Part shown: piece by piece, positions 4,713-18,166 of the stretch
Layout of the letters: each line of letters starts with the position of its first letter
How positions within the stretch are numbered: position 1 is the first letter of the stretch
From: Alphaproteobacteria bacterium
GTDB taxonomy: Bacteria; Pseudomonadota; Alphaproteobacteria; UBA828
Length of the DNA stretch: 64,000 nt
Assembly (NCBI GenBank): GCA_963422645.2
Contig: CAXXVO010000007.1
Span: 128,001 to 192,000 of the forward strand
Direction: 5' to 3'
Translations under genes and position numbers: made by a program
Notes under the pieces: model-generated
The model's input: only the letters and a program-made list of their open reading frames with translations
Told to the model about the DNA's origin: nothing
The model's database searches: none

Positions 4713-4817
4713 GGCCCCGGACCATGGTGCGATGCACAGCACGCGGCGCGTGCGCCATCATCGCGCCATGAAGGACGAGAGCGAGCGCCTAGCCGCGGGC
4801 GGAGACAAGATAGGCGA

Positions 4818-6899: not shown

Positions 6900-7364
6900 A
6901 TGGTGCACACGGCCGACGCGGCCCCGGGCGACGCCCAATTCGGTTATTTCTTCGAGGACCTGAAGATTGGCATGAGCGCGGAATACGGGCGCATTATCAA
7001 CGACGAGGAGATGCGGCTCTTCGCCGATCTGACGGGCGACACCAATCCGCTCCACTTCGACGACGACTTCGCCGAGCAGTCGCGCTTCGGCGGCCGGATC
7101 GTCCACGGCATGTGCACCGCAGCATTGATCTCCACGGTCATCGGCACCCGGATGCCGGGGCCGGGCTGCATCTACTTGTCGCAGTCTCTCCGCTTCACCG
7201 CACCGGTCAGGCCCGGCGACGAGGTGGTGGCTCGGGCCGTGGTGGACCGCCTGATCCCGGAGCGCCAGCGCGTCGAGTTCGAGACCACGTGCTCCGTGGG
7301 CGAGCAGACCGTGCTTTCCGGCCGCGCACTCGCTCAGGTTCCCTCCCGGGGAGGCCCCGCGTAG
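6900..7364 (+). CDS. MaoC-family (R)-enoyl-CoA hydratase/dehydratase
   Basis: FADLTGDTNPLH...RIVHGM..PGPGCIYLSQSLRFTAPV; RBS AAGGAGG. Confidence 0.88.
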   Translation: MVHTADAAPGDAQFGYFFEDLKIGMSAEYGRIINDEEMRLFADLTGDTNPLHFDDDFAEQSRFGGRIVHGMCTAALISTVIGTRMPGPGCIYLSQSLRFTAPVRPGDEVVARAVVDRLIPERQRVEFETTCSVGEQTVLSGRALAQVPSRGGPA

Positions 7365-7660
7365 CCGCCGGAGCAGCCCACCTACTCCTGCTCTACCCGG
7401 CCTTGTGGCGGCGCGCCCCTCTCACCATCTCAGGTTGAGAGGACAATAGAAGGGCACGGCAGATGACGGCACGGCGGCAATCACAAGAGATGCCTGGACG
7501 GCGTCCGCCGACTGCCGTGTTCGTTCAGGCTATCCCTGGCGGGCCCGCGCCCACACAAAGCCGAGCAAATGGCGAAAACAGGGGACATTGAGCGCGCGCG
7601 GTCTTTCAGCGGGGATCGGGGCCTGATCCGCTCGGATTTGTTGAGGTTTTGGGGCGGGTG

Positions 7661-7695
7661 CCCCTCGGCGAACTTGCAAGAAGTTCGCCGGGGGG
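7661..7695 (+). promoter_or_regulatory. Hairpin upstream of the transposon operon (operator or attenuator-like)
   Basis: CGGCGAACTT-gcaag-AAGTTCGCCG perfect 10-bp stem extended by C/G runs and followed by CTTTG. Confidence 0.35.
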
Positions 7696-7738
7696 CTTTG
7701 TCTCGTGGTGACGGTCACAATCGCCAGAGACGGCCCCA

Positions 7739-8356
7739 ATGTCGCACAACATTTTCCGCCACTCCATGCTTTGCAACGCCCTGGTCTGGGCCTGGCTGCG
7801 CGAGGTCGATGAGGCCGAGGCGGCGCGCTGCCGCGAGGCGGGCTGCCGACACTGCCCCGGCAAGCTGCACAGCGCGACGTATCCGCGCAAGCCGTACGGT
7901 CTGGCAGCCGAGTTGAGGGAAGAGGGCACGCGGCGGTTCAGCTTCTGCTGCGCGGATTGCCGCCTGCGAGCGACCCCACCATCGGTACGATTCTTCGGGC
8001 GCCGCTTTTATCTGGGCGCCCTGTTCGTTCTGTTGAGTGCACTGGTTCTGAGAGGCGGGGTGCGGTTGCAGACGATCAAGCGGAAGTGGGGGGTCTCGGT
8101 CGCCACACTGCGCCGCTGGCGGAAGTGGTGGCTGGAGGCGTTCCCGGCGACGGAGCCCTGGGGAGCGAAGCGTGGCGAACTGGTGATGCCACCCGAGGAG
8201 GTGCCGCTGCTCTTCGTGCTGCGGCAGATGCGGGGCGGACGCTTCGGTGAGCGTCTGTTCCTGAGCCTGATCTGGTTCAAGCCGTGGACGGGCTATTGCG
8301 GGCTCGGCGATGGCTCGGCGCCGCCCGCAGAAAGTGTTCCTGTCACGCCCGGATAG
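7739..8356 (+). CDS. Transposon-associated Cys-rich (putative Zn-finger) and HTH protein
   Basis: CRHC...CCADC pairs and HTH-like GVSVATLRRWRKWW; directly upstream of the transposase. Confidence 0.6.
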   Translation: MSHNIFRHSMLCNALVWAWLREVDEAEAARCREAGCRHCPGKLHSATYPRKPYGLAAELREEGTRRFSFCCADCRLRATPPSVRFFGRRFYLGALFVLLSALVLRGGVRLQTIKRKWGVSVATLRRWRKWWLEAFPATEPWGAKRGELVMPPEEVPLLFVLRQMRGGRFGERLFLSLIWFKPWTGYCGLGDGSAPPAESVPVTPG

Positions 8357-8405
8357 GGCGTTCTACATGGGCATCTCTCCGATGCGGCGAGGGAGGGATG
8401 CCGGA

Positions 8406-9881
8406 ATGGACAAGGACGACGCAGGCGCCAGGCGCGAGAAGTGGGCCCGGCTGCGCTTTGCGGTGGTGGGGCCGCTTCTGGCTTCACCGCCGCCTGCAGG
8501 CCAGCTGGGGGCCGAGTTCGAGCGTCTGTCGCAGCGCGACTGGGAGCACCCGTCGGGCAAGGGGCCGGTGCGCTTTGCGGCCTCGACGATCGAGCGCTGG
8601 TACTACCGGGCGCGGGCAGAGGAGCAGGACCCGGTCAAGGCGCTGCGCCGGAAGCCTCGGACCGACGTCGGCCGCGAGCGGTCCATGTCGGCGGGGCTGA
8701 TCGCGGCGCTGCGCGAGCAGTACCGGGTCCATCCCTCGTGGGCGGCGCAGCTCCACTACGAGACCCTCAAGGCTCATGTTGCGACCCATCCCGAGCTCGG
8801 CCCGATGCCGTCCTACGCGACGCTGACGCGGGCGATGCGCAATCGCGGCCTGGTGCGCGAGCGCCCCAGGAAGTGGCACGAGGGTGAGGACAAGCCGGCG
8901 GTCGAAGCCCGCGAGGTCCTTAGCTACGAGGTGTCTCGCAGTCACGCGCTGTGGCACGGGGACTTCCACCACGGCAAGCGCCGCGTGCTGACGGCGTCGG
9001 GCGAATGGCAGACGCCCATCCTGCTCGGCTTCCTCGACGACCACTCCAGGCTTGGCTGCCACCTGCAGTGGTACCTGGAGGAGACCGCCGAGGTCTTCGT
9101 CCACGGGCTCTGTCAGGCCTTCATGAAGAGGGACTTGCCCAGGTCCCTGCTGACCGACAACGGCGGGCCGATGACGGCGGGCGAGGTCGAGGAGGGCTTG
9201 CACCGCCTCGGCATCGTGGGGGCCACGACACTCGCTTACAGCCCCCATCAAAATGGAAAAATCGAGTCGTTCTGGGGCACGGTCGAGGGCCGCCTGATGG
9301 CTCAGCTCGAAGGCGTCGACGCGCTCACCCTGAAGATGCTCAACGACGCCACCATAGCCTGGCTGGAGCAGGACTACCATCGGCGGGTGCACCGCGAGCT
9401 CGGCATGACGCCGCATGAACGCCTCGCCGGGAGCGTCAAGGCATCGAGGCCCTGCCCCGCCTCGGACGAGCTCAAGGCGGCCTTCCGCATCGCCAGGAAG
9501 CGCACGCTCAGGCGCTCGGACGGCACCGTCTCGGTCGAGGGCATCCGCTACCAGGTGCCACAGCCGTGGCGCCACCTGAGGACGCTCTGGGTCCGCTATG
9601 CGCGCTGGGACCTCAGCGGCGTCGATCTGGTGGAAGGCCGAAGCGGCGAGCGGCTGTGCACGCTGTACCCCCTCGACAAGCGCGGCAACGCCGATGGCGT
9701 CCGCCGTCCTGCGAGACCCGGCAGCGACCATGGCGGCGCCAGCGCGGGCGTCGGCGAACTTCCGCCGCTGCTCAAGGGCGTGCTCGACGCCCAGGCCGCA
9801 ACAGGCCTGCCGCCGGCCTGGGTACCCCATAACAAGACGCCCGGTCCGGGCGAGGACGACGATCAGGGAGATCCGTCATGA
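8406..9881 (+). CDS. DDE transposase (rve core; IS481/Mu/TnsB-like)
   Basis: LWHGDFH, FLDDHSR, LTDNG, NGKIESFW; Mu-transposase-C-like tail RRSDGTVSVEGIRY. Confidence 0.9.
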   Translation: MDKDDAGARREKWARLRFAVVGPLLASPPPAGQLGAEFERLSQRDWEHPSGKGPVRFAASTIERWYYRARAEEQDPVKALRRKPRTDVGRERSMSAGLIAALREQYRVHPSWAAQLHYETLKAHVATHPELGPMPSYATLTRAMRNRGLVRERPRKWHEGEDKPAVEAREVLSYEVSRSHALWHGDFHHGKRRVLTASGEWQTPILLGFLDDHSRLGCHLQWYLEETAEVFVHGLCQAFMKRDLPRSLLTDNGGPMTAGEVEEGLHRLGIVGATTLAYSPHQNGKIESFWGTVEGRLMAQLEGVDALTLKMLNDATIAWLEQDYHRRVHRELGMTPHERLAGSVKASRPCPASDELKAAFRIARKRTLRRSDGTVSVEGIRYQVPQPWRHLRTLWVRYARWDLSGVDLVEGRSGERLCTLYPLDKRGNADGVRRPARPGSDHGGASAGVGELPPLLKGVLDAQAATGLPPAWVPHNKTPGPGEDDDQGDPS

Positions 9882-10711
9882 ACCGCGAGCTGCTCACCTT
9901 CTACGGGCTCAAATGGAACCCCTTCGCCACCGACCTTCCGGTCGACAGCCTCATGGTGAGCCCCGCCGTCGACAGCTTCTGCCTCAGAATCGAGCATCAT
10001 CTTGTGCGCCAGGGCGGCTTCGCGTTGATCGCCGGCGAGCCCGGCACCGGAAAGAGCGTGGCGTTGCGCGTGCTCGCCGACCGCCTCGGCCGCTCGGACG
10101 GGCTCAGGGTCTGTGCCATCACCCACCCCTCTTCCAGGCTGTCCGACTTCTACCGCGAGATCGGCGGGATGTTCGGCGTCGACCTGATGTACAACAACCG
10201 CTGGGCCAGCTTCAAAAACCTGCGCGAGCGATGGCTCACCCATGTCGACGACACCCGCATGCGGCCCGTGGTGCTCATCGACGAGGCCCAGGAGCTGCTG
10301 CCCTCGGTGATCTCCGAGATCCGCCTGCTGGCGTCCACCGACTTCGACTCGCGCGCCATCCTCTCGGTCGTCTTCGCCGGCGACAGCCGCCTGATCGACA
10401 GGCTCCGCCAGCCCGACTTGCAGCCCATCGCCTCGCGCCTGCGCCAGCGCCTGGTCATGACCCAGGCAGACGCCGGCGACCTCGCGGCCCTGCTCGACCA
10501 TCTGGTCGAGCAGGCCGGCAATCCGGGCCTCATGAGCGCAGAGCTCAAGGACACCCTGGTCACCCACGCCGGCGGCAACCCCAGGGCGCTTACCGTCATG
10601 GGCGACATGCTGCTCGCCGCCGGCGCCGAGAAGAACCGCGAGGTTCTCGACGAGAAGCTCTTCATGGAGATCCTGGGCGAGCCCGCCAAGCCGAAGAGGG
10701 CACGGCGGTGA
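9878..10711 (+). CDS. ExeA/AAA_22-type ATPase (MuB/TnsC/IstB-like transposition helper)
   Basis: FYGLKWNPF, Walker A GEPGTGKS, Walker B VVLIDEAQ, GNPR; ATGA overlap with the transposase. Confidence 0.88.
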   Translation: MNRELLTFYGLKWNPFATDLPVDSLMVSPAVDSFCLRIEHHLVRQGGFALIAGEPGTGKSVALRVLADRLGRSDGLRVCAITHPSSRLSDFYREIGGMFGVDLMYNNRWASFKNLRERWLTHVDDTRMRPVVLIDEAQELLPSVISEIRLLASTDFDSRAILSVVFAGDSRLIDRLRQPDLQPIASRLRQRLVMTQADAGDLAALLDHLVEQAGNPGLMSAELKDTLVTHAGGNPRALTVMGDMLLAAGAEKNREVLDEKLFMEILGEPAKPKRARR

Positions 10712-11706
10712 AGGGCTTCCCGACACGGGCGCCGATGCAGCTCGAGGATCGCCCCCGGGCGCAACAGTGGATGGTGGACACGCTGTGGGCCGAGCAGGCC
10801 GTGGGCATCGTCGGCGGCGAGCCCAAGTGCGGCAAATCCCTGCTCGCGCTCGATCTCGCCGTCGCCGTGGCCACCGGCGTCCCATGCCTGCGCCACTACC
10901 GCCCCAGCGCAAGCGGCACCGTGCTGCTCTTCGCCGCCGAGGACGCCGGCCACAGGGTGCGCAAGCGTCTGCAGGGGATCGCCCGCGCCGCCGCCACCCC
11001 CTTCGACGAACTCGACATCGCCGTCATCGACGTGCCCACCCTGCGTCTCGACCAGCGCATCGACCGTCAGCGCCTGCAGGAGACCGTGGAGCGCATCGAA
11101 CCGCGCCTCCTGATCCTCGATCCCCTGGTCCGCCTGCACAGCGTCGACGAGAACGCCGTCGCAGAGATCGCCCCCATCCTCGGCTTCCTGCGCGAACTGC
11201 AGCGCCGCTTCGAAACCGCCGTCCTCCTCGTCCACCACGCCCGCAAGAGCGGCGGCACCCGGCCGGGGCAGGCCCTGCGCGGGAGCAGCGAGCTGCACGC
11301 TTGGGGTGACTCAAATCTGTACCTGCGCCGGCGCGACAAGAAGATCGTCATGACGGTCGAGCAGCGCGACGCCCGGGGCCTCAACGACATCGAGCTGGAA
11401 CTCGTCGACGGCGGACATGGGCCGGCCTTCCGTCTGCACCAGGACGCGGCAGATGAAGACAGGCACGAGCCCGCCACCGTCGAGCAGCGCGTCTTCAAGG
11501 CGATCGAGCAGGCCGAAAAGCCGCTCTCGAAAGCCCAGATCCGCTCACGCGCCGCTGCCCGCAACGCCACCGTCGTTGCCGCCATCGAGAGCCTCACCAG
11601 GGAGGGGCGCATCGAACGGGCGCCCAGGGGTGGCTATCGCCTCGCAGCCGCCGAGGCGCACCGGGAGCCGCAATCCCCTGCCGCCATCAACGGAAGTGCG
11701 GGATGA
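10708..11706 (+). CDS. RecA-family AAA_25 ATPase (RepA/DnaB-like helicase) with C-terminal wHTH
   Basis: GEPKCGKS, LFAAED, LLILDP, VDEN, LLVHHARK, LRGSS; GTG start overlaps the previous stop. Confidence 0.8.
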   Translation: MKGFPTRAPMQLEDRPRAQQWMVDTLWAEQAVGIVGGEPKCGKSLLALDLAVAVATGVPCLRHYRPSASGTVLLFAAEDAGHRVRKRLQGIARAAATPFDELDIAVIDVPTLRLDQRIDRQRLQETVERIEPRLLILDPLVRLHSVDENAVAEIAPILGFLRELQRRFETAVLLVHHARKSGGTRPGQALRGSSELHAWGDSNLYLRRRDKKIVMTVEQRDARGLNDIELELVDGGHGPAFRLHQDAADEDRHEPATVEQRVFKAIEQAEKPLSKAQIRSRAAARNATVVAAIESLTREGRIERAPRGGYRLAAAEAHREPQSPAAINGSAG

Positions 11707-11767
11707 GGCGTTCCCGTTCCCGTTCCCGGAACTCTTAAGCGTTGAAGGGTACAGGAACGGGAACGCC
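11707..11767. repeat. 14-bp inverted repeat with GTTCCC x3 (putative replication origin)
   Basis: GGCGTTCCCGTTCC (11707-11720) / GGAACGGGAACGCC (11754-11767); tandem GTTCCC at 11710-11727; AT-richer spacer. Confidence 0.6.
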
Positions 11768-11808
11768 GTCAGCCTCCCTTCCAAGCAGACCTTCGCCGGG
11801 ACCCGGCA

Positions 11809-12678
11809 ATGAGCGGCGGCGATCCCCTGGCCACCTGCCGCAACATCCCCCTCGACCGGGTCGCCGCCGCCCTCGGCTACCGCAGAGACCCGACCGACCG
11901 GGCGCGCTTCAAGCGCGGGGGCTCGGTCATCAGCATCAACGGCGAGAAGTTCTTCGATCACCTGCGCGGCACGGGAGGGGGTGGCGCCATCGACCTCGTC
12001 ATCCATGCGACGGGATGCCGCTTCCCGGAAGCCCTCCGCTTCCTCGGAAGCCATGAGGGGCGGAGGGAGATCACCACCATCCCAGCCGCCCCGCGACGCC
12101 TGCGGCTGCCAAGGCCCAGTCCCCGCGCCTGGCCCAGGGTCCGGGACGCCCTCATCCGCCAACGCGCTATCGGCACCGACGTGCTCGAAGCCTGCCACGG
12201 CCGAGGCCTCCTCTACGCCGATGACAGGATCAACGCCGTCTTCATCTGCCGAAACGCCAGCGGGCACACGACCGGCGCCGAGATCCTCGGCACCGCGCCG
12301 CAGCCCGGAACAAAACGCTTCAGGGGCATGGCCCCGGGATCGCGCAAGGCGCGTGGCGGCTTCTGGCTCCACTGCGACCGAAACCAGCCCGCCCTCGTCA
12401 TCCTCACCGAGAGCGCCGTCGACGCCATCTCTGCACGAAGCCTGCGCGTCGAGGGGACGCGCGAGAACGGCGCCGTCGTCGCCTCAACCGCCGGCATCGC
12501 CAGCTCGGTCCCGCCCTGGACCAAGGAGTGGAAGCCACGTCGCATCGTCTGTGCCTACGACGCAGACAGCGCCGGCGACACTGCCGCCGAGCATCTCGTG
12601 CTCAACGATCCAAGGGTGAAAAGGTTGCGCCCACGACACGCCAAGGACTGGAACGAGATGCTCCTGCGGTCTCGATGA
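11809..12678 (+). CDS. TOPRIM-domain primase-like protein (DUF3991/Toprim type)
   Basis: FFDH..GGGGAIDLV..F.EAL N-domain; ILTESAVDAIS, AYDADSAG, KDWNE. Confidence 0.8.
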   Translation: MSGGDPLATCRNIPLDRVAAALGYRRDPTDRARFKRGGSVISINGEKFFDHLRGTGGGGAIDLVIHATGCRFPEALRFLGSHEGRREITTIPAAPRRLRLPRPSPRAWPRVRDALIRQRAIGTDVLEACHGRGLLYADDRINAVFICRNASGHTTGAEILGTAPQPGTKRFRGMAPGSRKARGGFWLHCDRNQPALVILTESAVDAISARSLRVEGTRENGAVVASTAGIASSVPPWTKEWKPRRIVCAYDADSAGDTAAEHLVLNDPRVKRLRPRHAKDWNEMLLRSR

Positions 12679-13703
12679 AAGCCAGGCCACTCACCGCTCT
12701 CGCAGATCAACCAAGCGCCGCATCACGAACATCAAATAATCCGAAAACCGCACCATCAAATGCTGGGCGCACGCTCAACATAGAAAACACGGAAATCCGT
12801 GAGCACAAGAAACCCGGTGAAGCAAAGCCAATCTGGCCCCGCGACCGGCGAAAAGAGAAAAGCGTTAGATCACTCCCCATAATAATTTTCTATAGCCTCG
12901 AATACGTTTTCTGCTGGTTCTATTACCTGTTCGGCCACGTCGCTAGCTTCCGATTCCTCCTTCAATTCTCCGCCGTCATGCTCTTCGCCATGGGCGTCTA
13001 CGGTGTGACCATAGACATCGAGAAGCGACAGATCGATCGCGGTGTTCGGGAAGCGACGCTGTTCGCGATGATCGCGCGCACCCACGCGCTACCGGACGGC
13101 AAGGGAGCGGGAGCGCTCAAACCCAGCGTGGAGGCACTGGCGCGCGACGGCGTCGCCCTGGAGGAGATCAACCTCAGCGGGGCGAACCTTCGGGGCGCGA
13201 AACTTGCTGGCGCCAATTTCAGGCGGGCCGATCTGAGCGGCGCAATCTTGGTCGAGGCGGACCTCAGGGGGGCCGATCTACGCGGCGCGAATCTCAGCGG
13301 GGCGGTCTTCATTCGAGCGAATCTGACGGACGCCGATCTCTGCGAGGCCGACCTCAGCGAGGCCGACCTCGTCGGTGCCGTTTTCGAGGAAGCCTACATG
13401 GAAAAGGTCAATCTGGAGGGGGCCGAGCTGCTCGTCTCCAACTTCTCGAACGCGCACTTGGCAGGCGCGATCGTGACCTCGGCCAATGGCGCCTACTCGA
13501 ACTTTGCCGGCGCCGATCTCTCCAATGCCAACTTCGGCGACACCGAGCTTCAGGGGGCATTGTTCGACGGTGCAAACATTGGCGGTGCCCGGCTTAGTCA
13601 GTCCTACGACCTTTCGAACACGCAGATCGAAAAGGCATGCGCCCCGTCGGATGCTCCTCCGGTCCTGCCGGAACACCTGGAATGGACAGACAGACGCTGC
13701 TGA
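12675..13703 (+). CDS. Membrane-anchored pentapeptide repeat protein (start uncertain)
   Basis: Long A(D/N)LxG pentapeptide tract after hydrophobic segments. Confidence 0.8.
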   Translation: MKARPLTALADQPSAASRTSNNPKTAPSNAGRTLNIENTEIREHKKPGEAKPIWPRDRRKEKSVRSLPIIIFYSLEYVFCWFYYLFGHVASFRFLLQFSAVMLFAMGVYGVTIDIEKRQIDRGVREATLFAMIARTHALPDGKGAGALKPSVEALARDGVALEEINLSGANLRGAKLAGANFRRADLSGAILVEADLRGADLRGANLSGAVFIRANLTDADLCEADLSEADLVGAVFEEAYMEKVNLEGAELLVSNFSNAHLAGAIVTSANGAYSNFAGADLSNANFGDTELQGALFDGANIGGARLSQSYDLSNTQIEKACAPSDAPPVLPEHLEWTDRRC

Positions 13704-13771
13704 AGGGAATTGCGATCCGACCGAGAGACCACTTCGCCTGCGGGCGAGCCCTGGAGTGAAGGAGAGCAACC

Positions 13772-14593
13772 ATGGAGTACAAGGACATCGTTGTGCATCT
13801 CGGAACCGACAACCGGTCGGCGGCGCGGCTCGATGCTGCAATCGAGCTCGCCGATCGTCATGAGGGCAGAGTGACGGGTGTCTATGTCCTGTCAAAACGC
13901 AGCATTCCCGGCTTCATCCGCTGCGAGATTCCGCCTGAGGTCTTGAAACGACTGGATAGGGAAGAGCGCAGGTTTGCCGAGGAGGCTGAGGAAATGTTCG
14001 CCGAACGGGCGGCTAGGACCCAGGTGCCGTGCGAATGGCGCCTCATGAAGGGCGACCCCGTGGATGCCGTCACCATGAGCGCACACTACGCAGACATCAC
14101 CCTCGTCGGCCAGACCGACCCCGATGACGGACGCAGTGCCAGCGGGCTGGCGGACCGTGTTGTGCTCGGCGGGGGCGGCCCCGTGCTGGTCTGGCCCTAC
14201 ACCGGCTCGTGCCACGCCACTGCGGCGACCGTCATGCTCGCCTGGAACGGCTCCCGCGAGGCGACCCGCGCGCTCGCTGACGCGCTGCCGCTCCTGCAAC
14301 AGGCGCGCAAGGTGATCGTCTTCTGCGTCGACAGGGACGACCGCACGCACATACCCGGGGCCGACGTCAGCACGCATCTGGCGCACCACGGAGTCAGGGC
14401 GGAGGCCCGGCACACGCGGACCTCATCCGGCATTCATACCGGCGATGCCTTGCTCTCCGAGATCAGTGATTGCGGCATCGGCCTCCTCGTCATGGGTGGT
14501 TACGGCCATCGCCGCCTGCGCGAGAGGCTGTTCGGCGGCGTCACGCGTGACATCCTGCGCGAGATGACCGTGCCGGTCCTGATGGCGCACTAG
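13772..14593 (+). CDS. Universal stress protein (tandem USP domains)
   Basis: YKDIVVH...AWNGSREATRAL...LLVMGGYGH..FGGVTRDIL...PVLMAH. Confidence 0.92.
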   Translation: MEYKDIVVHLGTDNRSAARLDAAIELADRHEGRVTGVYVLSKRSIPGFIRCEIPPEVLKRLDREERRFAEEAEEMFAERAARTQVPCEWRLMKGDPVDAVTMSAHYADITLVGQTDPDDGRSASGLADRVVLGGGGPVLVWPYTGSCHATAATVMLAWNGSREATRALADALPLLQQARKVIVFCVDRDDRTHIPGADVSTHLAHHGVRAEARHTRTSSGIHTGDALLSEISDCGIGLLVMGGYGHRRLRERLFGGVTRDILREMTVPVLMAH

Positions 14594-14707
14594 CCGACAG
14601 TCGGCATGACTCATGTCATACCGCGCTCGCAGTCGCTCGGTTAGGCTGACCTCTGCTCTATGGCTCGGACGTCACGTACGGGCCGGCGAGGTGAAGGAGG
14701 CTTGACC

Positions 14708-15436
14708 ATGGCGTACAAGGATATCGTCGTGCATCTGGCTCAGGATGATCGCTCGCAGGTGCGGCTTGAGGCAGCGATCGAGCTGGCTGAACGACACGAA
14801 GGCAGGGTTACCGGTGTCTACGTGCTGCCTCGTCTCGTCGTCCCCGGCTTCGCGAGCTTCGAGCTCTCCACGGAGGTCTACAAGCGGCTGGATACGGAAC
14901 AGCGATCGCTGGCCGAAGAGGCCGAGCGGCAATTCGCCCAACGGACGGCGCAGTCGACAGTGCCGTCCGAATGGCGCCTGCTGACGGGCGACCCGGTCGA
15001 TGGGGTCACGACGAGCGCGCACTACGCCGATATCACCATCGTCGGCCAAACCGACCCCGACGACGAAAACAGCATCTCCGGGCTGGCGGACAGCGCGGTG
15101 CTCGCCGCGGGCGGGCCGGTGCTGGTCTGGCCCTATGCCGGCTCCTTCGGCGCCAATGCGGAGACCGTCATGCTCGCCTGGAACGGAACCCGCGAGGCGA
15201 AGCGCGCACTCGCCGACGCGCTGCCCCTTTTGCAGCAGGCGAGCAAGGTGATCGTCCTCGGGATCGATACCGGCGACGGCAAGCACATACCGGGGGCCGA
15301 GATCAGCACATACCTGGCGCGGCACGGTGTCAGCGCGGAAGCCAGGCACGCAATCAGCTCATCGGATCTCGGCGCGAGCGACGCCCTCCTTTCCGAGATC
15401 AGCGATCACGGGGTGGACCTTCTTGTCATGGGCGGC
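14708..15436 (+). pseudogene. Second universal stress protein, 5' part (interrupted)
   Basis: Paralog of the upstream USP up to LLVMGG, where similarity stops abruptly at 15437. Confidence 0.9.
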
Positions 15437-15817
15437 TGTAGACGGACGAAAGTCGTTGTGAATCGGGTCAAGGGGTGGAATCAGGCGGAATCGGGCGGAA
15501 GGTGGCGGAATCTCAAGGGGATGCGCGCGGCGGCACGGTGGCGGTGCGGCGGCTGGCGTGCGGACGGAAGTCTTTGCGAATCGGGCCGTGCAGAGGCCGT
15601 GAATTGGCTGGAAACGGCAATTTTCGGGGCGTTTCAGGGGTCTTGCGACGGCGGCAAATCGGGTCGGTTTCGGGGTATCGGATTCGGCTGGAAAATCCGG
15701 TGCGAGGTGCGGTGCGAGGCGCCCGTTGTCAATCGGCTTTCAATACTGACCCCCGATCGGCGTGCAAAATTGACCCCCCTGAGTGGCAACCGGGCCGCAA
15801 GGGAGGCCGGCGGCGGG

Positions 15818-16546
15818 TCAGGAGCGGTTCTTGAAGCGCCAGCTCTCGTTGCCGGTCTCGATGATCTCGCAATGATGGGTGAGGCGATCGAGCAGCGCTG
15901 TGGTCATCTTGGGGTCGCCGAAGACGGATGGCCATTCGCCGAAGGCGAGGTTTGTGGTGATGACGATCGAGGTGCGCTCGTAGAGCCGGCTCATCAGATG
16001 GAAGAGCAGCTGCCCACCGGCCTGGGCGAAGGGCAGGTAGCCGAGCTCGTCGAGGATGACGAAGTCGCGGCGGACGAGCTGGTCTGCAGTGCGGCCCTGG
16101 CGTCCGGCGCGAAGCTCGGCCTCGAGGAGGTTGACCAGGTCGACGACGTTGTAGCACCGGCCGCGCGCGCCCTTGCGGATGCAGGACCGCGCGATGGCGA
16201 CGGCGAGATGGGTCTTGCCGGTACCGGTGCCGCCGACCAGCACGATGTTGCGTTTGCCCTCGAGGAAGCCGCCGCCGGCGAGCTCCTGGATCAGGGGCTC
16301 GTTGACCGGCGAGGCGGCGAAGTCGAAGTCGGCCAGCTCCTTGACCGTCGGCAGCTTGGCGGAGGCCATCTGGTACTTGATCGAGCGGGCCCTCTTGTCG
16401 GCGATCTCGACCTGCAGCAGCGTACCGATGATCTGTTGCACCGGATGGCGGCGCTTGAGCCCGTCGGCAAGGATGTCGTCGTAAGCGGCGCGCATACCTG
16501 CGAGCTTCAGCTGGGTCATCATCTCCAGCACATCATGACGCTCCAT
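15818..16546 (-). CDS. istB: IS21 helper ATPase IstB
   Basis: [36 protein letters not shown]. Confidence 0.95.
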
Positions 16547-18047
16547 GACCGGCCTCCCTCAGGCTGTCGTAGCGCTGACAGTCGGCTACCGGCTTGTGGC
16601 GAAGCTGCAGGCCCTCGGGCGTCGGGATGATTGCCGGCGGTGCCGGCTGGCGCTGCCGGGCGAGGATGTTGAGCACCACGTCGGCGCTGCAGGCACCGCA
16701 GTCGAGCGTCTCGGCACAGGCCGCCTCAACCGCCTCCAGTCCGTCCTCCAGCACCGCCGCGAGCACCTTGACGAACTGCCGGTCGCCGTCGTCGTGGCCC
16801 GCGAGCCGGGTTCGCAGGCGGCCGAGCGCGTTGGGCAACTGCCAGTCCTTGAAGGGCGCGCCATTGCGTAGCGCGCCGGGCTTCCGCGTCAGGATCGGCA
16901 CGTAATGCCACGGATCGTAGACGAACCGGCCGCGCCCGAAGCTGCGGGGGTGCTCGGCAACGGTCTCGCCGTCCTGGCGGATGACGATCCGATCGGCATA
17001 GGCCCGCACGTCCACCGGCCGGCCGACGGCGCGGGCCGCGACGCTGTACTGGTTGTTGTCGAAGCGCACCAGACAGGTCTTCGAGACCGACACCTCGCTG
17101 GCATGGAAGCCGTCGAAGGGGCCGCGATACGCCATCAGGAAGGGCTGCTCCTCCTCGAACACCTGCCACACCGTCTTGCCCGGGATTGTCGGATGCGGAT
17201 GCTTCTTGGCGTCCTCGATGCACCGATCCATCAGCCACTCGTTGATCTCGGCGTAGGAGCGGCCCCGCGGGATGGGCACGAACAGGCGGCCGCGAAGGTC
17301 ACCCACCTGCTTCTCGACCTGCCCCTTCTCCCAGCCAGCCCCTGGCGTGCACGCCACAGGCTCCACCAGATGGTGCGAGCACAGCTCCTGGAAGCGGCGG
17401 TTGTAGTCCCGCTTCTTGCCCACGAAGATCGTGCTCACCGCCGTCTTCATGTTGTCGTAGATGCCCCGCCGGCAGACCCCGCCGAAGAAGCGGAAGGCAC
17501 GCTCGTGCGCCTCGAAGACCATCTCCTGGCTCTCGCGGGGAAAGATCTGGACCAGATACATCCGGCTGTGGCACAGCCGCATGTGCGCCGCCTTCACCCT
17601 GGTCGTCGCGCCCGACAGACGCGCGTACTCGTGGCTCCAGTCGAACTGGTAGGCCTCGCCGGGATCGAAGATCAGCGGCACATAGGCCTGCGCCGGCGAC
17701 AACAGCCGCCACCGGCGCCGCCAGGCCCTGGCATAGCGGCGAACCGCGTCATAGCCGCCCTTGTAGCCCAGCGACACAAGGTCTTCATGAATCCGCAGAA
17801 GAGACAGCCGATCCTTGCGTGCCTTCTTCTCGTTGGCCTTCAGCTGGCGCTCAAGCTCCTCCACCCACAGCCCAAGCTTCGGCATCGGCTGGATCTTGCG
17901 CTCGTAGCTGTGCGAGGTCGCATCGCCCCGCACCACCTTGCGTATCGTGTTCTTGGAAACCCTCAAATCCCGGGCGAGCTTCTTGATCGGAACGCCCTTC
18001 ACCAGATGATCCCGACGGATCTTCGCGATCGTTTCCACAACCAGCAT
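16533..18047 (-). CDS. istA: IS21 transposase IstA
   Basis: [35 protein letters not shown]. Confidence 0.95.
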
Positions 18048-18166
18048 CTCCCCCACCACCCCGTCCGTCCAAACGACGAGGTGTGTTCATGGACACAAAT
18101 CCAAGGGGGTCAATTTTGGACGCCGATCACCCCCAATAGGGGGTCACTTTTCCACGCTTAACAACA

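Follow-up and report, generated by a model that had tools for sequence, protein, structure and literature searches.

Based on our analysis of a 64,000-nucleotide stretch of an alphaproteobacterial genome (GenBank assembly GCA_963422645.2, contig CAXXVO010000007.1, positions 128,001 to 192,000 of the forward strand; hereafter the window), we describe a 5189-bp transposon at window positions 7589-12777 that brings along a predicted helicase and a predicted primase of its own. Its core, formed by the three left genes, is of a known and named kind, Tn6049. New are the five-gene form with a DnaG-type primase, a palindrome that co-varies throughout the family, the presence of the primase on other cores, and an alternative protein with a tail resembling that of single-stranded DNA-binding protein (SSB). 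We propose that the predicted helicase, the palindrome and the predicted primase form an exchangeable unit that starts replication when the transposon is copied during transposition, a reading to which we give an even chance. A broader proposal, which we hold somewhat more tentatively, is that Tn6049-type, related DDE/ATPase and IS21-type transposons share a right-end "replisome-recruitment slot" with four interchangeable occupants, and that the five-gene form starts replication by itself during transposition. Under this broader proposal, the occupants would be a mimic of the SSB tail, a self-loading initiator-helicase with its co-evolving site, a helicase with a DnaG-type primase, or a primase alone.

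The features of the element, in window coordinates, are as follows.

7585-7588, no strand: left 4-bp target-site duplication ACAT (sequence reading and empty-site contig).
7589-7599, plus strand: left terminal inverted repeat, starting with TG, TGAGCGCGCGC (left limit common to the copies; imperfect inverted match to the right end).
7739-8356, plus strand: open reading frame 1 (ORF1), 205 residues, Cys-rich (zinc-finger-like), with a weak helix-turn-helix (HTH_23, E = 0.0018, below cut-off).
8406-9881, plus strand: DDE (rve) transposase, Mu/IS481-like, 491 residues (Pfam rve, E = 2.7e-6, with rve_3 and HTH_32); the frame is open from 8310.
9878-10711, plus strand: AAA_22 ATPase, MuB/TniB/"GspA"-like, 277 residues (Pfam AAA_22, E = 6e-19).
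10708-11706, plus strand: AAA_25 RecA-fold ATPase with a C-terminal winged helix, 332 residues (Pfam AAA_25, E = 3e-36).
11707-11767, no strand: palindrome of 3 + 3 hexamers (GTTCCC three times, a loop, and a GGGAAC-type hexamer three times) directly after the AAA_25 stop codon, a candidate helicase binding or loading site.
11809-12678, plus strand: DUF3991-Toprim protein with a DnaG/T7 gp4-type primase fold, 289 residues (Pfam DUF3991, E = 1.7e-10; Toprim_2, E = 5e-9).
12730-12737 and 12754-12761, plus strand: two subterminal CATCAAAT repeats, putative transposase binding sites (sequence reading).
12767-12777, plus strand: right terminal inverted repeat, ending with CA, GCGCACGCTCA (right limit common to the copies).
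12778-12781, no strand: right 4-bp target-site duplication ACAT (sequence reading and empty site).

The element is a real, recently active, multicopy transposon. A search of its own genome with window 7400-13000 found at least 8 full-length copies. BLAST gave 44 pieces that amount to 23.1 copy-equivalents, far above chance: at least 8 intact copies, 4 that are full-length and interrupted by insertion sequences, and many truncated ones, in total about 120 kb, or 2%, of the 5.9-Mb genome. Copy identity is 99.3-100%, except for one divergent right-end fragment at 89%. An internal inverted-repeat scan of the window did not reveal the short terminal repeats; the ends were derived from the comparison of copies, and the limits were placed at 7589 and 12777 since these are common to at least 8 intact copies and to an empty site. 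So delimited, the element is wider than the 7739-12678 assigned by an earlier, sequence-only reading of this DNA. It runs TG..CA, from TGAGCGCGCGC on the left to GCGCACGCTCA on the right, with an 11-bp imperfect terminal inverted repeat. The empty site was found when contigs from four public sequencing runs were compared with window 7000-13300: run X3, from a further sample filed under this organism label, contributed a contig of single-copy depth in which 7584 runs straight into 12778, with 4 letters that could belong to either side. The window copy is therefore a recent, polymorphic insertion with a 4-bp duplication. Mapping an empty site was one of the checks proposed in the sequence-only reading, which had also named, as an outcome that would refute it, ends that map between the ATPase and the helicase. 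Since the copies and the empty site place them at 7589 and 12777, they do not fall there, and the genes for the predicted helicase and primase both lie inside the DDE transposon, as that reading had supposed.

A direct repeat of 4-5 bp is present at 5 of 12 end pairs (ACAT, CCGT, CCTTG, TTCCC and GCAGG), and a matching duplication is missing at the other 7. Recombination among the 23 near-identical copies can explain the end pairs that have none, and one left flank equals another copy's right flank (GCCGT). We considered whether such scrambled flanks prove replicative transposition and rejected this, because homologous recombination between copies yields the identical pattern. The CATCAAAT repeats, a motif also kept near the right ends of relatives, are likely to be transposase binding sites. 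At G000:C3:162385-166181 and C6:430794-436755, element ends abut the interior of other copies; these are nested self-insertions, and target immunity of the Mu type seems weak or absent. Two copies, other than the three with an interrupted primase gene described below, are broken at differing places by a 2159-bp insertion sequence. The left flank of the window copy (7000-7421) has a depth of about 38 against 9.9 for the right flank, roughly fourfold (run X1), and may itself be repeated.

The five co-oriented open reading frames between 7739 and 12678, in a window of 67-75% G+C, were all confirmed, and their Pfam domains bear out the gene list of the sequence-only reading; the overlaps by which that reading saw transposase, ATPase and helicase coupled are likewise there, as ATGA between transposase and ATPase (9878-9881) and as GTGA between ATPase and AAA_25 (10708-10711). 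The transposase most likely starts at 8406, since its relatives are about 491 residues long. Its DDE triad (D186, D251, E287) is invariant in 16 of 16 transposases of 54-100% identity. Among the NCBIfam models, IS481 fits best (E = 9e-34), with a score of 117 bits, below the cut-off of 224; the IS21 transposase model is weaker than IS481 and far under its cut-off (E = 2.3e-9), and among the PHROGs phage families the protein matches phrog_310 (transposase; E = 4e-35). The ATPase carries Walker A GEPGTGKS and Walker B LIDEA and matches phrog_296, "DNA transposition protein" (E = 6e-19), as well as the ExeA-like TIGR03015 (E = 7e-28, below cut-off); it gave no PDB sequence match. With an rve-fold DDE triad beside a P-loop ATPase, the two belong to the Mu-like DDE/AAA+ superfamily and, judging from their sequences, are a Mu A/B-like pair. 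ORF1 is kept upstream of the transposase in relatives whose locus extends that far. Neither ORF1 nor its counterparts yielded a Pfam family even at E values up to 10, and DUF6431, to which an ESM Atlas lead had pointed for ORF1, was not confirmed by Pfam. Pfam found no TniQ, TnsA, resolvase, relaxase, capsid, Cas, nuclease or polymerase domain in the five proteins, in agreement with the sequence-only reading, which had seen no TniQ, resolvase, relaxase, capsid or Cas gene.

That reading also knew of no named family with this layout. A named relative exists in Tn6049, whose three left genes are those of the window element. The two transposases share 49.8% identity over 93% of the query (E = 2e-130); the Tn6049 gene lies on pMOL28, pMOL30 and chromosome 2 in Cupriavidus metallidurans CH34, and in Pseudomonas aeruginosa on pHS87a. 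On pMOL28, the order is a "transposase" of 181 residues, which is the counterpart of ORF1, an "IS481 family transposase" of 479, an "AAA family ATPase" of 277 and a hypothetical protein of 71. In the published accounts, Tn6049 is a 3.5-kb element with 12 copies in CH34, all with the ATPase gene gspA (PMC2864759), and on pHS87a it has a 12-bp imperfect inverted repeat starting with TG and a 4-bp direct repeat (PMC4739549). The window element and Tn6049 have the same co-oriented gene order, in which a small Cys-rich protein comes first and is followed by an rve transposase and an AAA_22 ATPase, and they have in common the TG-starting imperfect terminal repeat, the 4-bp duplication and the multicopy state. 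Unlike the 3.5-kb Tn6049, it measures 5189 bp; Tn6049 has no AAA_25 gene, palindrome or primase, and its ATPase gene is followed by a small open reading frame (71 residues as annotated) with an acidic ...DNDF tail. A more complete annotation of Tn6049 may exist in the supplementary files that accompany the CH34 genome papers.

The fourth protein is predicted, from sequence and model, to be a RepA-like ATPase of the hexameric-helicase type, closest to RepA of RSF1010. RSF1010 RepA (1g8y) is its sole PDB sequence match (E = 8e-9) and also the top fold match of its AlphaFold model (E = 2.7e-9; TM score 0.66 on the target), which has a predicted local distance difference test score (pLDDT) of 77. 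The protein also matches phage primase/helicase families in PHROGs. A RecA-fold core, Walker A and B motifs, an HHxxK sensor and RGSS arginine motifs were all recognized, as expected of the RepA/DnaB type, and Walker A, AED, Walker B, DEN, HHxxK and LRGSS are conserved in 45 AAA_25 representatives down to 38% identity. The model places a winged helix (helix-helix-helix-strand-strand) at residues 258-312 with a pLDDT of about 90.

A co-varying cis site is tied to the helicase gene. The palindrome follows AAA_25 across the clades of the family, and its arms change together, from GTTCCC/GGGAAC to CTTCCC/GGGAAG and TTTCCC/GGGAAA. In 25 relatives, the 15 pairs of the palindrome are paired in 90.1% of cases, compared with 77.9% after shuffling (none of 500 shuffles equals it); 10 of the 15 pairs are altered on both sides (again 0 of 500), and slid registers reach at most 70.9%. 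Taken as single-stranded DNA, the palindrome folds with a z score of -5.43, and none of 200 shuffles is as good. No Rfam family was found for the palindrome or for the hairpin-rich tail described below (all families, E up to 1; only chance microRNA matches).

The fifth protein appears to be a primase of the DnaG type. Its AlphaFold2 model (pLDDT 86.9) gave 39 PDB fold matches at E up to 0.001 in Foldseek; among the matches listed are DnaG-type primases, T7 gp4, Twinkle and T4 primase-helicases, the best being the Aquifex primase 2au3 (E = 4e-7), with JetD and RecR much further down the ranking. A Toprim fold, the Glu plus DxD set and an RNA-polymerase subdomain ahead of it were found, as in DnaG, and all 17 proteins compared, of 49-100% identity, keep the Toprim residues E201, D251, D253, D257 and D280. 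The CHC2 zinc domain of DnaG was not found: no Cys/His tetrad is conserved, and the N-terminal domain weakly resembles a zinc-binding domain (1d0q, E = 0.04). The protein has no PDB sequence match. Its nearest relatives in PLSDB are 30-38% identical over the full length and lie within genes for MobV relaxases, or "plasmid recombination enzymes", of small mobilisable plasmids, or stand alone as "DUF3991 and TOPRIM" proteins. We also considered anti-phage defence of the PARIS, OLD or Gabija type and rejected it, since the ATPase + Toprim-nuclease models were unmatched and the JetD and RecR folds rank low; PADLOC gave no significant family, the only hits being a DRT model, matched in its DnaG-like part (E = 2.3e-8), and, weakly, the winged helix of AbiEi. 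A predicted complex of the AAA_25 protein with the primase scored 0.01, which carries no weight either way.

Transposase relatives number more than 7,000 in the protein database and occur in at least 10 phyla. A profile scan of species genomes gave 80 loci in 61 genomes from many phyla, and in these loci ORF1, transposase and ATPase stand in the same order wherever the contig extends far enough. AAA_25 follows the ATPase in 39 of the 47 genomes in which its presence could be judged (it could not in 14). Trees of transposase and AAA_25 from 45 non-identical elements have their major clades in common, so that the congruence for which the sequence-only reading had asked is there, and the helicase and the transposase have thus long diverged together. 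Local mosaicism is also seen: against the element at locus L029, identity is 89% for the transposase and 91% for AAA_25, and only 66% for the ATPase. The 5.2-kb long form is found in the window's genome and in two others of its genus.

Both modules have been exchanged among DDE/ATPase transposons. One case is a 4621-bp element in genome G020 (L036:620-5240), present in at least 17 full copies, which has a second kind of ORF1/transposase/AAA_22 core: its transposase and its ATPase are each 27% identical to those of the window, and its AAA_25 is 72-80% identical, nests in the window's clade with full support and is followed by the same tail hairpins. Kin of this element have, in place of AAA_25, a small tail protein (L035) or only the primase (L126, L135). 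The search in the other direction, with the primase as query, gave 31 metagenome loci. Primases at least 75% identical to the window's sit in five-gene elements (L118-L121); a 5'-truncated locus, L122, shows only ATPase, AAA_25 and primase, on the second kind of core; and primases about 50% identical lie directly behind second-kind cores that have no AAA_25 (L124-L126, L135). At L131:317-3829, and also at L130, a DUF3991-Toprim gene of 47% identity stands behind an IS21-type IstA/IstB pair (IstB_IS21, E = 6e-53); at L131 the pair is preceded by a small Cys-rich open reading frame.

Other sequences occupy the same places. In primase-less forms, a hairpin-rich stretch of about 150 nt takes the place of the primase gene, between the palindrome and the right end (L031:5330-5475; single-stranded DNA fold z score -3.58; also L030, L034, L036, L037, L045 and L057). 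It is missing or partial in 4 of 12 aligned tails, and host enzymes may use it as a signal for priming. Among 28 loci without AAA_25, 15, Tn6049 included, have an open reading frame of 60-90 residues just 3' of the ATPase, which ends in an acidic run followed by Phe as the last residue; the ending is PF in 11 of the 15 and ILF, PTF, RHF or NDF in the others, with tails such as ...FDDEIPF, ...FDEIPF, ...FDKIPF, ...DESPPF and ...ELDTPF. The SSB proteins of the window's own genome end in ...DLDDDIPF and ...DPDDSIPF. PriA, the chi subunit, DnaG and other proteins dock on the SSB tail. The resemblance makes it possible that the small slot protein mimics this tail and recruits host restart proteins. 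Positions of these small frames include the following.

L117:5746-6018 (Tn6049, pMOL28)
L035:4900-5121
L068:3662-3931
L094:2360-2590
L110:4073-4285
L112:3579-3782
others

Since all occupants either are fork proteins or imitate such proteins, the slot most likely starts copying. The element itself must presumably be copied when it moves, because it has neither a nuclease for the second strand nor a resolvase. From these considerations, we infer the biochemical steps of a plausible mechanism. Copying would be replicative transposition of the Mu type or copy-out. The AAA_22 ATPase would capture target DNA as MuB does, and the helicase-palindrome-primase module would provide the start of copying: the winged helix may recognize the palindrome, either in double-stranded form or folded into a hairpin when its strand becomes exposed, the helicase could load itself there, and the primase would make the primers of the lagging strand. 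Having a module of its own would make the element less dependent on the host restart primosome.

Several of our results weigh against this proposal. The module is dispensable for transposition, if Tn6049 with its 12 copies and no module is a guide (PMC2864759). Within the window's own genus, the 4.4-kb primase-less form occurs in four genomes (G005, G008, G009 and G014) and reaches at least 24 matches in G009 and at least 12 in G005. The sequence-only reading had expected all five genes to be consistently linked; this held for the helicase and failed for the primase, which follows AAA_25 in 3 of 22 testable genomes and is absent in 19 (17 were not judgeable). Whichever tree is used, the primase must have been gained or lost at least three times, and 400 other genomes sampled evenly from the class yielded no match to it (at E = 1e-30). 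AAA_25 is itself absent, despite room of at least 1 kb, in 8 of the 47 testable genomes, two of which have broken ATPase genes, and the 39 of 47 overstates the linkage across the family, because the profile whose best matches make up the 80 loci was centred on this clade. No recognisable slot gene is present in 13 of the 28 loci without AAA_25, several of these being broken or too short to judge. As to the AAA_25 fold, RadA, Rad51 and KaiC score nearly as well as RepA and DnaB. A symmetric protein-binding palindrome would covary just as a hairpin does, and the paired share is inflated, because the 25 sequences were selected by an inverted-repeat scan. Finally, an identical 1764-bp insertion sequence interrupts the primase gene, at element position 4725-4728, in three loci (G000:C11:80741-87697, C18:61466-68422 and C13:129934-132381). 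The composite in C18 is flanked by a 5-bp duplication of its own, GCAGG, so that a primase-broken copy has probably moved, perhaps helped in trans by other copies.

We therefore weighed other explanations of the module. It could be a minimal replicon, in which the winged-helix helicase is an origin-binding initiator acting on the palindrome and, together with the primase, copies an excised circle or over-replicates an integrated copy, so that the transposon would multiply like a plasmid or like P4 before it reinserts. The long form does have the ingredients, with a candidate initiator-helicase, a primase and iteron-like repeats; the helicase gene and the palindrome travel together between unrelated transposons; and the NCBIfam/PGAP models put the transposase nearest to IS481, a family that uses circular intermediates. 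We nevertheless consider this explanation unlikely. The depth of the element relative to its flanks is about 25x (run X1) against 23.1 integrated copy-equivalents, which leaves no visible extrachromosomal excess, a weak point in that such depth is no copy number. No end-to-end joint was seen among the contigs examined, which drop rare forms, and AAA_25 is almost absent from plasmids, with 2 weak matches in 72,556 records.

About equally unlikely, in our view, is that the helicase-site unit and the primase are hitch-hiking cargo, that is, selfish or host-directed passengers in a permissive right end that have no role in transposition, for example remnants of plasmid or satellite replicons or means of interference with other replicons. 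The swapping of modules among unrelated cores, their dispensability for proliferation and the plasmid mobilisation proteins that are the nearest annotated relatives of the primase would all suit passengers. They fit poorly with the strict conservation of catalytic motifs across 38-100% identity, the co-divergence of helicase and transposase, the GTGA overlap that couples the module translationally to the core, and the relation of all slot occupants to the replication fork. The modules were, moreover, seen only with transposons of the DDE + AAA+ ATPase kind in the loci examined, a sampling that was seeded from these elements.

Less probable still is that the AAA_25 protein helps recombination, as a RadA-like branch-migration motor aimed at the palindrome that aids the resolution of cointegrates in place of the missing resolvase. 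The element indeed has no resolvase domain, RadA and Rad51 are among the top fold matches of AAA_25 (8rxc, E = 4.9e-9), and the 7 of 12 unmatched end pairs and the GCCGT flank exchange fit frequent recombination between copies. RepA is, however, the best match by both sequence and fold, the primase and the SSB-tail protein in the same slot point to replication rather than resolution, and host recombination among 23 near-identical copies suffices for the scrambled flanks. TnsE steers Tn7 insertion to forks or incoming single-stranded DNA, and the plasmid relatives of the primase act on transferred plasmid strands; a comparable role of the slot proteins in choosing forks or incoming single-stranded DNA as targets would suit the SSB-like tail of the small protein, the fork-type proteins in the same position and those mobilisation genes, and we think it improbable, because a conserved cis site inside the element, beside the helicase gene, is unexpected for a target selector.

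A replication-start module within a transposon can be set against several known systems. Mu, Tn552, Tn5053 and Tn7 have TG..CA ends and a short duplication and depend on host replication proteins; Tn7 has TnsA and a target selector of the TniQ/TnsD type, and Tn5053/Tn402 and Tn552 have a serine resolvase with a res site. The window element resembles this group in its rve DDE transposase with an ATPase partner, its TG..CA ends and its short duplication, and differs from Tn7, Tn5053/Tn402 and Tn552 in having no TnsA, TniQ or resolvase domain, and from the whole group in bringing its own predicted helicase and primase. With IS21 it shares a two-gene DDE + AAA+ core, but its ATPase is AAA_22 and not IstB_IS21 (PF01695). 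Unlike an IS481 element, it has five genes rather than one, and its transposase stays under the NCBIfam cut-off.

The closest parallels to the module itself are found in replicons. The RSF1010 (IncQ) replicon has the RepA helicase, the RepB' primase, RepC, iterons and ssi hairpins. Of the proteins with a solved structure, RepA is closest to the AAA_25 protein, and both systems combine a helicase, a primase, short repeats and hairpins. Unlike RSF1010, the window element has no RepC-like initiator, so that origin binding would have to come from the winged helix of the helicase; its primase is of the DnaG/Toprim type and not of the RepB' type; and the set lies inside a transposon. The P4 alpha protein unites primase, helicase and an origin-binding winged helix in one chain and acts on iteron-type sites. 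The same three activities are predicted here, together with iteron-type sites, and the primase has T7 gp4 and Twinkle among its best fold matches. In contrast to P4 alpha, T7 gp4 and Twinkle, the activities are divided between two genes in the order helicase-primase, the helicase has a RepA-like RecA fold, and the primase has neither zinc ligands nor a helicase-binding tail.

Transposons that bring replication enzymes, or have a linked factor that does so, are known elsewhere. Casposons (PMC4779613) and Polintons are self-synthesizing transposons with a DNA polymerase and Cas1 or a retroviral-type integrase, and IEE is a host-side PrimPol-helicase that promotes excision (10.1101/2023.06.07.543989). 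The window element is like these in carrying replication enzymes; unlike casposons and Polintons, it has no polymerase domain, its five open reading frames fill it, and its core is a Mu-like DDE/ATPase one. In the full-text literature, supplements being outside the search, we found no description of a helicase- or primase-bearing transposon of the Tn6049, Mu or IS21 type, and in the literature searched no bacterial DDE transposon with a helicase-palindrome-primase arrangement was found described.

Of additional note, window 13769-15440 and 15440-18160, to the right of the element, contains two tandem paralogues of universal stress protein (300 nt at 70% identity, spacing 936 nt) and an IS21-type element, which apparently interrupts the second paralogue near 15440. 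The IstA of this element (rve + Mu-transpos_C_2) is encoded at 16533-18059 on the minus strand.

For replicative as for copy-out transposition, a replication fork has to be assembled at the transposon, and for Mu it is host restart proteins that build this fork. Elements such as the one described here split assemblies into contigs of 3.5-5.2 kb, and their annotation does not go beyond "AAA family ATPase" or "toprim domain-containing protein". The co-varying palindrome and the helicase candidate offer a defined protein-DNA pair for testing. If our proposal is true, these transposons would bring or recruit a primosome of their own, with their own helicase, loading site and primase in the five-gene form and an SSB-tail mimic in relatives, and they would provide a compact, portable system in which to study the assembly of forks on transposition intermediates.

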